A stretch of 64,000 bases of DNA, taken from Escherichia coli (GTDB lineage: Bacteria; Pseudomonadota; Gammaproteobacteria; Enterobacterales; Enterobacteriaceae). The number at the start of each line of letters is the position of its first letter. Within the stretch, counting starts at the first letter, position 1. The DNA lies in assembly GCF_024502345.1 (NCBI RefSeq), contig NZ_JALDNN010000001.1. One strand, given 5' to 3'. This document shows positions 3,785 to 35,922 of the stretch, piece after piece. The position numbers and the translations under genes were made by a program. The notes below the pieces were generated by a model. It was not told the origin of the DNA. It searched no databases and saw only the letters and a list, made by a program, of their open reading frames with translations.

Positions 3785-5185
3785 TTAATCCATCTCTTCC
3801 GCTGAGGTAATACCAGGCAGAACGTTTTCCTGTCGGTAGCCACCAGGGAGGATAATATTTAATAAAATCGCAGTTAACCCGCCAGCACAAATAGGGTTTT
3901 CAACTAATACATAAATAGAGGCTGGCAATATTTTAAAAATTTCGGGATCGTAGGAGACGCCAAGCCCTAAACCTAAAGAAGTGGCGACAATAAGTGTTTC
4001 ACGCCGCTTTAATCCGTTGGTGATGATGATGCGAATCCCAGCGATGGCAATCATGGAAAACATCAACGTCATTGCGCCTCCCAGAACTGCCGAGGGAATG
4101 GTCGTGAAGAAGCCGCCAATCATCGGAAATAAGCCGAGGATAACCAGCATTACCGCGATGGTTCGCCCGACATAACGTGAAGCGACGCCAGTCATCTGAA
4201 TAACCCCATTATTTTGCGCAAACGTGGTTAATGGTAATGAACCGACAGCGGAGGCGATAACAGAAACCAGACCATCTGCCAGCACGCCGCCTTTCAGTCG
4301 GGACTGATACTCTTCCCCCTGAATGGGGCGGCGGGAAACCATTGCCGTGGCGGTGATATCGCCGACTGCTTCCAGCACGCTAAGCAGATAAATCGTGCCA
4401 ACCACCAGGAACTGATGGAAGCTAAAACTAAAGCCGTATTTGAACGGATGCGGGATGGTGATTAACGGCAAATTGCGCATACTGCTGAAATCCACCATGC
4501 CCAGGCATAACGATGCGATATAGCCGACACATAGCCCAATGGCGATCCCTCCCATGCGTAGCAACGGACTGCGACAGCAGTTAAAGCCGATCACCACAAT
4601 TAAAACCAATAAACCAACGCCGAGATGTTCGTAATTGCCGAACGTACCGCTGCTTTTGGCTGCAAATCCTCCACCAAAATCGATAATGCCGACTTTAATC
4701 AGGCTTAAGCCGATCATCAGTACCACAATACCGCTGACGGTAGGCGTAATAACCCGACGTAAATAGGGCAAGATAAATGAAGATCCGACAACCAGAAATG
4801 CGCCAACGAAGGAGACGCCGAGAAGCGACGACATGATTAACTCTTCGTGAAAACCGTCGCTTTTCATGCTGCTGCCCAGCGCAATCATGACCGTAACAAA
4901 TGAAAAATTGACTGACTGAATTGAGAGTAGGCCAGAACCGACGATGCCGTAGCGGTTTACTTGTAACCAGGTACCAATACCAGAGGCGATCATCGCCATA
5001 GAAACAAGATAGGCGGTTGTTTCAGCGGAAAGCTGTAAGGCCGCACCCACGATTAACACGGGGGTTACCATCGGAACGAAAATTGCCAACAGATGGGTAA
5101 TGGCACCAACGAGAGCCTGATGAAAGGGAGGGCGATCCTCCAGTTCAAATATAAGGTCAGAACCTGCATGGTTTATATCAGACAT
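3785..5185 (-). CDS. xanQ: xanthine permease (NCS2 family)
   Basis: ORF 3785..5242 trimmed to internal Met (MSDINHAGSDLIFELEDRPPFHQAL...); 466 aa membrane protein. Confidence 0.85.
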   Translation of the reverse strand: MSDINHAGSDLIFELEDRPPFHQALVGAITHLLAIFVPMVTPVLIVGAALQLSAETTAYLVSMAMIASGIGTWLQVNRYGIVGSGLLSIQSVNFSFVTVMIALGSSMKSDGFHEELIMSSLLGVSFVGAFLVVGSSFILPYLRRVITPTVSGIVVLMIGLSLIKVGIIDFGGGFAAKSSGTFGNYEHLGVGLLVLIVVIGFNCCRSPLLRMGGIAIGLCVGYIASLCLGMVDFSSMRNLPLITIPHPFKYGFSFSFHQFLVVGTIYLLSVLEAVGDITATAMVSRRPIQGEEYQSRLKGGVLADGLVSVIASAVGSLPLTTFAQNNGVIQMTGVASRYVGRTIAVMLVILGLFPMIGGFFTTIPSAVLGGAMTLMFSMIAIAGIRIIITNGLKRRETLIVATSLGLGLGVSYDPEIFKILPASIYVLVENPICAGGLTAILLNIILPGGYRQENVLPGITSAEEMD

Positions 5186-30298: not shown

Positions 30299-30372
30299 GC
30301 GGGCGTAGTTCAATGGTAGAACGAGAGCTTCCCAAGCTCTATACGAGGGTTCGATTCCCTTCGCCCGCTCCA
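30299..30372 (+). tRNA. glyU: tRNA-Gly (anticodon CCC)
   Basis: 74-nt sequence GCGGGCGTAGTTCAATGGTAGAACGAGAGCTTCCCAAGCTCTATACGAGGGTTCGATTCCCTTCGCCCGCTCCA with cloverleaf and CCC anticodon. Confidence 0.95.
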
Positions 30373-30563
30373 ATTTATCTTCACCTGATCAATCTGCCAT
30401 TTTTGCTGTATCTGATTTTCTATATTATCTTAATTCAATCGCTTCAGGCTTTTCGCAATCGCTGTAACACTTCCCCATTTTTTTGTAAATAAAAAGCGTT
30501 TACGCAATGCAATCCTTTTGTAACAACCCAGGTAAAACACCTTATTTTCAAGTTGTTAAATAA

Positions 30564-31169: not shown

Positions 31170-32036
31170 CTAAGCGAGGTTCTGGTTTTCAAATTGTTCC
31201 GGACTGAGGCCGCCACACCAACTGTGCCGCCGCCACCGATTGTAATCACATTCGATATAATTAAACACCGTTGCCCGCATTATTTCCCGGCTGATAAAGT
31301 GTTCTCCATGGATACATTCCACTTTCAGCGAATGAAAGAAGCTTTCCACGCAGGCATTATCGTAGCAGCAACCTTTTGCGCTCATACTTCCACGCAGATT
31401 ATGCCGCTTCAGTTGCGCCTGATAATCTGCTGAACAGTACTGGCCTCCACGGTCCGTGTGAACGATAACGTTCCGGGGCCTCTTACGCCGCCACAGCGCC
31501 ATCTGCAGGGCATCGCAGGCCAGTTGCGCCGTCATGCGTGGCGACATTGACCAGCCAATAACGGCACGTGACCACAGGTCAATGACCACTGCCAGATACA
31601 GCCAGCCTTCATCTGTACGTAAGTACGTGATGTCTCCTGCCCACTTCTGGTTCGGGCCACTGGCGTAAAAATCCTGCTCCAACAGATTTTCTGACACAGG
31701 CAGGCCGTGTGCGCGGTAGCTGACCGGGCTGAACTTCCGGGAGGCCTTTGCCCTCAGTCCCTGACGGCGCAGGCTTGCCGCCACGGTTTTTACGTTAAAG
31801 GGGTAACCCTGAGCACGCAGTTCATCCGTCAGGCGTGGGGCACCGTAACGCTGTTTTGACCGGGTAAAAGCCGCGAGGACAACGCTGTCGCAGTGTTGGC
31901 GGAACTGCTGACGCGTGCTTATCCTTGTCCGCCGCTGACACCACGTATACCAGCCGCTGCGGGCCACCCGGAGCACGCGGCACATTGCTTTGATGCTGAA
32001 CTCAGCCTGATGTTTTTCAATAAAGACATACTTCAT
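31170..32036 (-). CDS. insF: IS3 transposase OrfB (DDE integrase domain)
   Basis: 288 aa ORF matching IS3 InsF ([32 protein letters not shown]...). Confidence 0.9.
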
Positions 32037-32062
32037 TTCAGGCGCTTCGCGAAGTATGTCGC

Positions 32063-33283
32063 TGTAGATTCAATTGGTCAACGCAACAGTTATGTGAAAA
32101 CATGGGGTTGCGGAGGTTTTTTGAATGAGACGAACATTTACAGCAGAGGAAAAAGCCTCTGTTTTTGAACTATGGAAGAACGGAACAGGCTTCAGTGAAA
32201 TAGCGAATATCCTGGGTTCAAAACCCGGAACGATCTTCACTATGTTAAGGGATACTGGCGGCATAAAACCCCATGAGCGTAAGCGGGCTGTAGCTCACCT
32301 GACACTGTCTGAGCGCGAGGAGATACGAGCTGGTTTGTCAGCCAAAATGAGCATTCGTGCGATAGCTACTGCGCTGAATCGCAGTCCTTCGACGATCTCA
32401 CGTGAAGTTCAGCGTAATCGGGGCAGACGCTATTACAAAGCTGTTGATGCTAATAACCGAGCCAACAGAATGGCGAAAAGGCCAAAACCGTGCTTACTGG
32501 ATCAAAATTTACCATTGCGAAAGCTTGTTCTGGAAAAGCTGGAGATGAAATGGTCTCCAGAGCAAATATCAGGATGGTTAAGGCGAACAAAACCACGTCA
32601 AAAAACGCTGCGAATATCACCTGAGACAATTTATAAAACGCTGTACTTTCGTAGCCGTGAAGCGCTACACCACCTGAATATACAGCATCTGCGACGGTCG
32701 CATAGCCTTCGCCATGGCAGGCGTCATACCCGCAAAGGCGAAAGAGGTACGATTAACATAGTGAACGGAACACCAATTCACGAACGTTCCCGAAATATCG
32801 ATAACAGACGCTCTCTGGGGCATTGGGAGGGCGATTTAGTCTCAGGTACAAAAAACTCTCATATAGCCACACTTGTAGACCGAAAATCACGTTATACGAT
32901 CATCCTTAGACTCAGGGGCAAAGATTCTGTCTCAGTAAATCAGGCTCTTACCGACAAATTCCTGAGTTTACCGTCAGAACTCAGAAAATCACTGACATGG
33001 GACAGAGGAATGGAACTGGCCAGACATCTAGAATTTACTGTCAGCACCGGCGTTAAAGTTTACTTCTGCGATCCTCAGAGTCCTTGGCAGCGGGGAACAA
33101 ATGAGAACACAAATGGGCTAATTCGGCAGTACTTTCCTAAAAAGACATGTCTTGCCCAATATACTCAACATGAACTAGATCTGGTTGCTGCTCAGCTAAA
33201 CAACAGACCGAGAAAGACACTGAAGTTCAAAACACCGAAAGAGATAATTGAAAGGGGTGTTGCATTGACAGATTGAATCTACA
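32063..33283 (+). mobile_element. IS30 insertion sequence (1221 bp) with 2-bp GC target-site duplication
   Basis: terminal repeats TGTAGATTCAATTGGTCAACGC (32063) and its complement ending ...GATTGAATCTACA (33283); flanking GC at 32061..32062 and 33284..33285. Confidence 0.9.
32125..33276 (+). CDS. insI: IS30 transposase
   Basis: 383 aa ORF (MRRTFTAEEKASVFELWKNGTGFSEIANILG...), DDE transposase. Confidence 0.9.
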   Translation: MRRTFTAEEKASVFELWKNGTGFSEIANILGSKPGTIFTMLRDTGGIKPHERKRAVAHLTLSEREEIRAGLSAKMSIRAIATALNRSPSTISREVQRNRGRRYYKAVDANNRANRMAKRPKPCLLDQNLPLRKLVLEKLEMKWSPEQISGWLRRTKPRQKTLRISPETIYKTLYFRSREALHHLNIQHLRRSHSLRHGRRHTRKGERGTINIVNGTPIHERSRNIDNRRSLGHWEGDLVSGTKNSHIATLVDRKSRYTIILRLRGKDSVSVNQALTDKFLSLPSELRKSLTWDRGMELARHLEFTVSTGVKVYFCDPQSPWQRGTNENTNGLIRQYFPKKTCLAQYTQHELDLVAAQLNNRPRKTLKFKTPKEIIERGVALTD

Positions 33284-33555
33284 GCGGCCTTTTGGAGGAT
33301 AGCCAGCTCTTCATCCCGTTCTGCCAGCTGGCGTTTGAGACGTGCAATCTCGGTAGACATCTCCAGTTCACGTTCAGAAGACGTCTGCTGATTTTGCTGT
33401 TTACTGCGCCAGTTGTAGAGCTGTGATTCATACAGGCTGAGTTCACGGGCTGCGGCAGTAACACCGATGCGTTCAGCAAGCTTCAGGGCTTCACTGCGAA
33501 ATTCAGGCGAATGCTGTTTACGGGGTTTTTTACTGGTTGATACTGTTTTTGTCAT
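33284..33555 (-). pseudogene. insE: IS3 OrfA (InsE), 3'-disrupted by the IS30 insertion
   Basis: translation MTKTVSTSKKPRKQHSPEFRSEALKLAERIGV...AILQKAA, then reading continues into the IS30 end. Confidence 0.7.
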
Positions 33556-33620
33556 GTGAGTCACCTCTGACTGAGAGTTTACTCACTTAGCCGCGTGTCC
33601 ACTATTGCTGGGTAAGATCA

Positions 33621-34231
33621 TAGATGCTACGGATATCCATATCCAGAACTTCAGCAATCTGATATGGATTATAACCAGAAACCATATACCCCATTATGGT
33701 GAATTCCATCTGAGTTAATGTGTTACCTCTGGTAAATGATAAATAACGACCAATAAATAGTTGTCTGATCTTTTCATTGGCAACATCAAGACCATCATCA
33801 TTATATATGACAGCAGATATTGCTGAGTTGTGTTTTCGCCAGTAATTAGCTAACGATTGCATATTGCGGTCGCTGACTAAAACAATCCCCATGTCAGTAC
33901 TTGCAAGATAGTCAATCCAGTCTTTTTCAAGGAATAGACGTAAAAAACTTACTGAAAAATCGACAAAAATATATCCGCTTAATCTCGCATTGTGGTTTTT
34001 AGTTAAGATACCTTCTACCACACCACGATTAAAATATGAACTTTCTTCGGGCCACATACAAAAACACGAGTTTGCGCAGTACTGCAAACGCGGTGACTCT
34101 TCTGGCATTATTTGGCAATGCATTGAGCAACTATTGCATGTAAGACTTTTATAACGACTACAAAGCCCCATGTTAAGAACCTCCCTATCCGTATATAATT
34201 GCATAATTTCATTGGTGATTGATGATGTCAA
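33621..34231 (-). pseudogene. LuxR-type HTH regulator (yqeH-like), C-terminally truncated by the IS3 insertion
   Basis: ORF 33602..34231 has a GerE/LuxR-like HTH at its C-terminus (LTQMEFTIMGYMVSGYNPYQIAEVLDMDIRSI); its last 6 codons and stop are supplied by IS3 sequence. Confidence 0.5.
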
Positions 34232-34630
34232 TACACCATGATTTTGTAATTTTGCTGGGAAAAATTGCGATTAATCTGTATTTGCTATAATTCTGATTAA
34301 GACATTTTAAAATGCATTTCTCGTTATTAAATATGATTATGTTTCACTGATTTAATCTTACCTGGTTGAGGGTGGTTCAGATAACTATCTCATGGTATGA
34401 GAATATCTATATCGCAAATTGTTTTTGAATGACCAGAAGATATCTTGCGAATCTAAGTTATGCATCTTAAATGGTCTTATTTAAGATGTTCAGATCTCTT
34501 TGTGTGTTTAACTAACTGATAATACTAGGATATGATGAGAGAAGTGATAGGGCGGAATAATAACGAATGAACATTATGAAAACTGGAATGGTTCAAAATT
34601 GTAGCAATTTTGAACCATTCACAATGGATA

Positions 34631-34864
34631 TCAGCTAAAGAACATTACCGATACGCACAGGATACCCACGATCAGCGTAATCAGATTTCCGATGGAACGC
34701 CAGGGTTTAAGCGCCGGGATCAGATACGTTGACAACGTAGGCATGATGAAAAGTATCATGGCAATGAGCGGGCCGCTGATCGCGTAAATCATCGAAATCG
34801 CGTTCGGGTTAATGCAACAAACAATGAAGGTGATCAGCGATACCAACATAATTGATAGTGCGCG
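34631..34864 (-). pseudogene. 3' fragment of a membrane transporter gene (yqeG-like), 5' part replaced by the IS903-family element
   Basis: 78 codons of hydrophobic C-terminal sequence ending at a stop codon; the reading frame upstream runs straight into the IS terminal repeat. Confidence 0.5.
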
Positions 34865-35922
34865 GGGCTTTGTTGAATAAATCGAACTTTTGCTGAGTTG
34901 AAGGATCAGATCACGTATCTTCCCGACAACGCAGACCGTTCCGTGGCAAAGCAAAAGTTCAAAATCACCAACTGGCCCACCTACAATAAAGCCCTCATCA
35001 ACCGTGGCTCCATAACTTTCTGGCTGGATGATGAAGCTATTCAGGCCTGGTATGAGTCAGCAACACCTTCTTCACGAGGCAGACCTCAGCGCTATTCTGA
35101 CCTTGCCATCACGACTGTGCTGGTCATTAAACGCGTATTCAGGCTGACCCTGCGCGCTGCGCAGGGCTTTATTGATTCCATTTTTTCTCTGATGAACGTT
35201 CCGCTACGCTGCCCGGATTACAGCTGTGTCAGCAGGCGGGCAAAGTCGGTTAATGTCAGTTTCAAAACGCCCACCCGGGGTGAAATCGCACACCTGGTAA
35301 TTGATTCCACCGGGCTGAAGGTCTTCGGTGAAGGCGAGTGGAAAGTCAAAAAGCATGGCCAGGAACGCCGCCGTATCTGGCGTAAGCTGCATCTCGCCGT
35401 TGACAGTAAAACACATGAAATCATCTGCGCTGACCTGTCGCTGAACAACGTTACGGACTCAGAGGCCTTCCCCGGGTTAATCCGGCAAACCCACCGGAAA
35501 ATCAGGTCAGCCGCCGCCGATGGCGCTTACGATACCCGGCTATGTCACGATGAACTGCGGCGTAAGAAAATCAGCGCGCTTATCCCTCCCCGAAAAGGTG
35601 CGGGTTACTGGCCCGGTGAATATGCAGACCGTAACCGTGCAGTGGCTAATCAGCGAATGACCGGGAGTAATGCGCGGTGGAAATGGACAACAGATTACAA
35701 CCGTCGCTCGATAGCGGAAACGGCGATGTACCGGGTAAAACAGCTGTTCGGGGGTTCACTGACACTGCGTGACTACGATGGTCAGGTTGCAGAGGCTATG
35801 GCCCTGGTACGAGCGCTGAACAAAATGACGAAAGCAGGTATGCCTGAAAGCGTGCGTATTGCCTGAAAACACAACCCGCTACGGGGGAGACTTACCCGAA
35901 ATCTGATTTATTCAACAAAGCC
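34865..35922 (+). mobile_element. IS903-group (IS5 family) insertion sequence, 1058 bp, no target-site duplication
   Basis: 18-bp terminal inverted repeats GGCTTTGTTGAATAAATC at both ends (34865 and, as complement, ending 35922); flanking 9-mers differ (TAGTGGCGG vs CATTCTTCT). Confidence 0.9.
34898..35866 (+). CDS. IS903-family DDE transposase
   Basis: 322 aa ORF containing ...AADGAYDTRLCHDELRRKKISALIPPRKGAGYWPGEY...; the true start may be an internal Met. Confidence 0.85.
   Translation: MKDQITYLPDNADRSVAKQKFKITNWPTYNKALINRGSITFWLDDEAIQAWYESATPSSRGRPQRYSDLAITTVLVIKRVFRLTLRAAQGFIDSIFSLMNVPLRCPDYSCVSRRAKSVNVSFKTPTRGEIAHLVIDSTGLKVFGEGEWKVKKHGQERRRIWRKLHLAVDSKTHEIICADLSLNNVTDSEAFPGLIRQTHRKIRSAAADGAYDTRLCHDELRRKKISALIPPRKGAGYWPGEYADRNRAVANQRMTGSNARWKWTTDYNRRSIAETAMYRVKQLFGGSLTLRDYDGQVAEAMALVRALNKMTKAGMPESVRIA

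Follow-up and report, generated by a model that had tools for sequence, protein, structure and literature searches.

Why does a short AT-rich spacer of Escherichia coli carry two perfect inverted repeats, and do the two have anything to do with each other? The repeats, called IR1 and IR2 here, lie in a 64,000-nt stretch of E. coli DNA (hereafter the window), in a region that comparison with annotated E. coli records places at the yqeG-proximal end of the ETT2 island. Our reading, with a probability of about 0.6, is that they are unrelated, single-copy and vertically inherited; IR2 would act at the level of RNA as a 3' hairpin of yqeG, and IR1 would be a dyad at the level of DNA that is likely bound by a protein.

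Genomic context of the repeats

On the minus strand the order is yqeG, which encodes an amino-acid permease, a spacer of about 460 bp at 31% G+C, and yqeH, which encodes a LuxR-family regulator. Both genes are broken in the window. Of yqeG the final 77 codons or so and the stop are left (34631-34865, minus strand), the gene being truncated by an IS903-like element of the IS5 family (34866-35922, plus strand) with 18/19-bp terminal inverted repeats at both ends. This element stands in place of about 4.4 kb, namely the 5' part of yqeG, yqeF, kduI and kduD, up to the upstream region of araE. The remnant of yqeH (33621-34171, minus strand) has lost its 3' end to an IS3 copy (31170-33620), whose end at 33620 cuts the gene and within which an IS30 is inserted (transposase 32125-33276). 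ETT2 between ygeQ' and yqeH' is mostly missing from the window, and the tRNA-Gly(CCC) gene glyU is found at 30299-30372. Several complete E. coli genomes show this ygeQ'-IS3-yqeH' deletion too, though not the events that involve IS30 and IS903. The exact architecture of the window was found in 0 of 5426 complete E. coli genomes, and the 551 bp around the repeats are 100% identical to strain YJ6.

The first-pass annotation of this DNA had not noticed that the regulator, too, is truncated; no intact gene is left here for either repeat to serve. Since an IS903-like element breaks yqeG and IS3 breaks yqeH, the repeats are functionless relics in the window genome. The two genes are pseudogenes in this genome, the repeats have no current role in it, and their importance is small. 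In the yqeH remnant there is a weak Rfam match to the enterobacterial sRNA STnc180 (33616-33840, minus strand; score 20.6 bits, gathering score 50, E = 0.34), which is probably due to chance. Two small ORFs of the spacer, one of 23 codons on the plus strand across IR2 (34567-34638) and one of 26 codons on the minus strand starting in IR1 (34385-34465), are probably not genes, since neither is kept in ST131.

Two repeats beyond chance

Both perfect inverted repeats claimed by the first-pass annotation are present in the sequence, with some change in their dimensions. IR1 reads CATCTTAAAT-GGTCTT-ATTTAAGATG and is a perfect 10+6+10 dyad at 34463-34488; the coordinates given for it (34462-34487) were off by one. 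IR2 reads GAATGGTTCAAAATTG-TAG-CAATTTTGAACCATTC and spans 34586-34620, its 16-bp stem being perfect and its loop 3 nt long. The 11-bp arms with a 5-nt loop that had been described at 34590-34616 exist as its inner part. The spacer has a third perfect palindrome, AAGATATCTT, at 34437-34446, which the first-pass annotation had overlooked.

Could such repeats arise by chance? To this end, 5000 dinucleotide-preserving shuffles were made of the 399-bp, 31% G+C spacer, and perfect repeats with arms of at least 10 and a loop of 3-10 were counted. At least one such repeat appeared with P = 0.0064, while two of them, or arms of at least 16, appeared in 0/5000 shuffles. In total the 64-kb window has seven perfect repeats of this kind, two of which are in this spacer. 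Absence of the repeats from other strains had been thought of as evidence against them; some 99% of complete E. coli genomes have them both. IR1 and IR2 go far beyond chance and are genuine, conserved parts of the yqeG-yqeH spacer in Escherichia.

A hairpin at the 3' end of yqeG

What is the longer of the two repeats? On the yqeG-sense (minus) strand IR2 begins 11 nt past the yqeG stop, and it folds on that strand with -22.5 kcal/mol (z -5.8). G-C pairs make up 5 of the 16 pairs, short of the G+C-rich stem of an intrinsic terminator, and since the stem is AT-rich its stability comes from its length. The tail on the 3' side, CAGUUUUCAU, has 5 U in an 8-nt window. Its interrupted U-tract, CAGTTTTCAT (34576-34585, minus strand), is separated from the stem by CAG, and it is shorter and more offset than a canonical one. 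In K-12 the tail after IR2 is CATTTTTCAT and the U-tract takes the form CAUUUUUCAU. A simple terminator scan found IR2 terminator-like on the minus strand only, and no T-run was found after the hairpin on the plus strand.

Is the hairpin maintained as an RNA structure? In eleven Escherichia sequences 95.8% of the IR2 cells are paired, and two pairs show compensatory change. At pair 2 the window, O157 and others have A-U and K-12 has G-U, while B2 strains as well as E. albertii have G-C; the G-U intermediate can pair in the yqeG-sense RNA only, as the other strand would give A.C. At pair 15 one cryptic-clade genome has A-U in place of U-A. The observed covariation score was reached by 0/500 shuffles. 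The comparison was then widened to 80 loci of yqeG orthologues across Enterobacteriaceae, including Citrobacter, Salmonella, Enterobacter, Kluyvera, Klebsiella and other genera. A hairpin starts at most 25 nt from the yqeG stop in 79 of the 80, with a median z of -3.4. The sequences of these hairpins are unrelated between genera, and some of them, for example in Kluyvera, are textbook GC-rich terminators.

IR2 thus resembles the intrinsic (Rho-independent) terminators of Enterobacteriaceae in two ways. It is a stable stem-loop shortly past the stop on the sense strand, with an interrupted T-run after it, and the structure at this position is kept while its sequence turns over between genera, with compensatory changes within the genus. 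It differs from them in having a perfect 16-bp stem with five G-C pairs and a short U-tract set apart by CAG. Its AT-rich stem together with the short, offset U-tract makes it atypical for a strong intrinsic terminator.

It is highly improbable that IR2 is instead a dispersed palindromic element of the REP, BIME or MITE kind, or a palindrome for protein binding. The unusually long perfect palindrome and the AT-rich stem would suit such an element, but IR2 occupies one locus per genome (a count of two places comes from matching a palindrome on both strands), has no Rfam family match, shows a G-U intermediate and a U-tract that are strand-specific, and has hairpins of unrelated sequence as its counterparts in other genera. 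The many copies typical of REP/BIME, ERIC and MITE elements were found for neither IR1 nor IR2. A search of 33500-35500 against Rfam 15 at permissive thresholds gave sub-threshold chance matches only (E at least 0.3), those over IR2 being look-alikes of miRNA-type hairpins. The Term-seq supplements of PMC7815308 have no yqeG or yqeH entry; yqeG lies within an H-NS-silenced region in K-12.

The case for IR2 as the intrinsic terminator or 3'-end hairpin of yqeG is convincing, with termination itself as the probable outcome. The suggestion of the first-pass annotation that this repeat is the terminator of the transporter gene is borne out by the position near the stop, the strand-specific U-tract, the compensatory changes and the orthologues. 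IR2 is an unannotated probable terminator for yqeG, and the locus is an ordinary one. When yqeG is transcribed, the RNA would form the 16-bp hairpin 11 nt past the stop, followed by the short U-tract, and this hairpin might end the yqeG transcript or stabilise its 3' end. In either event IR2 may insulate yqeH against read-through from yqeG, and yqeH would then use its own promoter, for which we propose TTGACA-17-AATTAT at 34231-34203.

A conserved palindrome upstream of yqeH

Does IR1 belong to the same class? It has no strand of its own, and it is found in exactly one place per genome in 5347/5426 complete E. coli genomes. When the window and a full O157 ETT2 island were searched for further IR1-like dyads, tolerating up to 3 mismatches or a spacer of variable length, IR1 alone came up. 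Divergence within E. coli is low, and much of the conservation there is uninformative. The spacer was aligned with two cryptic-clade Escherichia and three E. albertii sequences in addition to E. coli. In this alignment 23/26 columns of IR1 are invariant, compared with about 40% for the whole spacer, which makes it a tied top block. Across Escherichia, both arms keep their inner 7 bp unchanged.

The variation of IR1 is of a different kind from that of a paired RNA. A compensatory change was found in 0/10 pairs; 8/10 pairs never vary, and the three changes observed are all single-sided, at the outermost or the innermost pair, where they break the pair or make it wobble. The bases of the loop are largely conserved too. 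The stem has two G-C pairs only, and no U-tract was found beside it on either strand. As there is no covariation and no U-tract and the sequence itself is conserved, IR1 fits recognition of DNA by a dimeric protein better than an RNA hairpin, and most likely it is a protein-binding palindrome, judging from its sequence. IR1 also resembles operators of dimeric factors, such as the 16-bp HusR/YnfL box of this spacer (PMC12844172), in being perfectly symmetric about a 6-bp centre and in keeping its sequence without covariation. Both the dyad symmetry and the conserved half-sites expected of an operator are found in IR1. Its dyad would bind, as DNA, a dimeric protein that could be a transcription factor, a nucleoid protein or a counter-silencing protein.

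One alternative explanation is that IR1 has no specific function, being a chance palindrome in AT-rich H-NS-coated DNA that was kept by descent and by the generic constraints on curved DNA. How easily does such a sequence arise? When metagenomes were scanned for the IR1 arms, 57 Escherichia yqeG loci came up and no shared regulon emerged; the scan also gave unrelated palindromes in 63 AT-rich contigs, with the 9-nt arms around other loops and in other flanks, and such a sequence therefore does arise easily. In addition, the entire spacer is 95-100% identical within E. coli, and H-NS binds the region as a whole. Against this stand the low P value for even one such repeat in the spacer and two features of the alignment. 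IR1 keeps 24/26 identity in E. albertii although the interval between IR2 and IR1 cannot be aligned there, and its right arm has an invariant run of 12 bp that ties for the longest in the spacer. On balance we consider the absence of a specific function rather unlikely.

Another alternative is that IR1 does work as an RNA hairpin, either as a back-up terminator or stabiliser for read-through from yqeG, or as a terminator for transcripts from the glyU side in genomes without ETT2. IR1 folds on both strands, with -10.9 and -11.2 kcal/mol (z -4.4 on the minus strand; z -2.6 on the plus strand, where 2/200 shuffles folded equally well). Transcription along the yqeG strand would reach it 97 nt after IR2, and B2 strains, in which glyU and yqeG point towards each other, have retained it. 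The pattern of substitution described above speaks against this role, as do the missing U-tract, the scarcity of G-C pairs and the conserved loop, and we hold it to be improbable.

The protein-binding reading of IR1 meets a difficulty of position. The first-pass annotation had put the repeat about 230 bp upstream of the regulator start. In the annotation yqeH starts with the ATG of 34171 and not with the TTG of 34231, and the distance from IR1 to the start codon is thus about 292 bp. The predicted -35 box of yqeH is about 255 bp downstream of IR1, and the centre of IR1 is about 280 bp upstream of the predicted transcription start, unusually distal in comparison with typical operators, which overlap a promoter or lie close to one; no promoter-like site adjoins IR1 on the yqeH strand. 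At this distance IR1 is far away for a simple operator.

Conserved blocks and bound proteins in the spacer

What else in the spacer is under constraint? Three blocks of 26 bp stand out in the alignment. One is IR1. Another, at 34400-34425, reads AAAACAATTTGCGATATAGATATTCT on the minus strand and has 23/26 invariant columns, equal to IR1, without dyad symmetry. The third (20-22/26) contains the -35 element TTGACA of the promoter-like site proposed for yqeH (TTGACA-17-AATTAT, 34203-34231, minus strand). In lying in a promoter-upstream region together with other conserved blocks, IR1 is again similar to palindromic operators, and as a putative binding site it would form part of a far-upstream control region of the H-NS-silenced yqeH promoter.

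Which proteins are known to bind here? HusR (YnfL) has a gSELEX peak in the spacer, and gel shifts are stated for its intergenic targets (PMC12844172). The box proposed for the K-12 yqeG-yqeH spacer in that work is CGCAAGATATCTTCTG, and a palindrome identical to it is present in the window at 34434-34449 (PMC12844172, Table 1), with the palindrome AAGATATCTT as its core, 13 bp away from IR1. IR1 itself does not match the pattern of the listed HusR boxes, C[AG]G-N10-C[CT]G, and the published list of HusR-activated genes excludes yqeH (PMC12844172). For the RpoS holoenzyme a gSELEX peak is listed where the spacer meets yqeH, and the spacer also has weak RpoH and RpoE peaks (PMC5493296); the gSELEX coordinate 2,985,164 is in an older K-12 numbering and was used at the level of the region against NC_000913.3. 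The published binding in the spacer consists of region-level gSELEX peaks, with the HusR box assigned to the palindrome that adjoins IR1 (PMC12844172, PMC5493296). Four papers on ETT2 or YqeH (PMC11068852, PMC9014576, PMC8259166, PMC10463865) describe no yqeH promoter, operator or EMSA. As a side observation, the pentamer AAGAT/ATCTT occurs four times in 55 bp near the HusR box, the arms of IR1 included.

Silencing by H-NS is another function that may be considered for this DNA. The yqeG-ygeI fragment of K-12 forms H-NS-dependent chromosomal hairpins both in vivo and in vitro (PMC12460168). With its 31% G+C, and as part of this K-12 H-NS-binding template, the spacer is similar to other acquired DNA silenced by H-NS/StpA in CHIN-forming regions (PMC12460168). 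The arms of IR1 contain TTAAAT, which is similar to the AT core of H-NS sites. In contrast to IR1, however, H-NS binding requires neither dyad symmetry nor a conserved block of 26 bp, and what is documented for K-12 yqeG-ygeI is silencing across the region, not at IR1 specifically. The proposal of the first-pass annotation that IR1 is an operator or a silencer site is thus compatible with a constrained sequence that is one of the three conserved blocks; it is weakened by the distance of about 280 bp and by the assignment of the published HusR binding to the neighbouring palindrome.

Why might these blocks matter? In avian pathogenic E. coli the ETT2 regulator YqeH is reported to affect motility and biofilm formation as well as virulence (PMC9014576). 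Its control region now has three marked conserved blocks, IR1, 34400-34425 and the -35 region, which can be used as targets of mutagenesis in studies of yqeH regulation or of H-NS silencing of ETT2.

ETT2 deletions next to IR1

There is a further question of concern, whether IR1 has to do with the loss of the island. Homology between the window and ETT2-less B2 E. coli (ST131 and others) breaks off at 34450-34457, with the homologous part of strains such as ST131 beginning at about 34454-34457; their ETT2 deletion ends here, roughly 9 bp outside IR1. All sampled B2-type E. coli have this one common endpoint (3990-4005 in the B2 sequence L001). They have lost the HusR box, and on the other side of the island they retain the first 140 bp after glyU; IR1 persists in them, altered by one G-to-A substitution in the outer pair. 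That these strains without yqeH keep IR1 with one change favours neither side on a role linked to yqeH. Other lineages have lost the island differently. In an ETT2-less Escherichia sp. (L004, 4400-4520) glyU is joined to the spacer near window position 34408, so that about 55 bp more are kept. In the type-strain contig of E. albertii NBRC 107761 (L083, 1218-1954) an IS1 fragment joins ygeQ' to the -35 region of yqeH. E. albertii contigs with an intact yqeH have the same spacer, which implies that ETT2 predates the split of E. coli and E. albertii and that the empty sites are independent deletions.

One scenario that would link IR1 to the island boundary is that it is an operator for a dimeric protein which limits the H-NS/StpA filament between the core gene yqeG and ETT2, or which triggers yqeH expression by counter-silencing. 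If true, it could explain why the ancient B2 deletion halts 9 bp away and why IR1 has outlasted its flanks in E. albertii. The scenario is speculative, and we give it little credence.

A role of IR1 in recombination at the boundary of ETT2, as a recombinase core or as a hairpin-prone hot spot of deletion, is largely refuted. Its 10-6-10 layout does resemble that of recombinase core sites, and the B2 deletion ends close by, but the homology between B2 and ETT2-bearing strains runs past the outer edge of IR1, and the junction is thus not in the IR1 spacer. The endpoints in the ETT2-less Escherichia sp. and in E. albertii lie elsewhere. No exact match of at least 8 nt, direct or inverted, was found between the glyU end (30299-30560) and the repeat region (34380-34640), compared with a mean longest match of 8.65 nt in 200 shuffles, and the full island is without a second copy of IR1. 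Since the junction is outside IR1, the endpoints vary among lineages and no repeat links the two ends of the island, IR1 is not an attachment site. An arm of IR1 has what we take to be a resemblance to the XerD arm of dif (ATGTTAAAT compared with ATCTTAAAT). As a site of the dif/XerD type IR1 was rejected: its arms are oppositely oriented to the central spacer, and the deletion junction falls outside the site.
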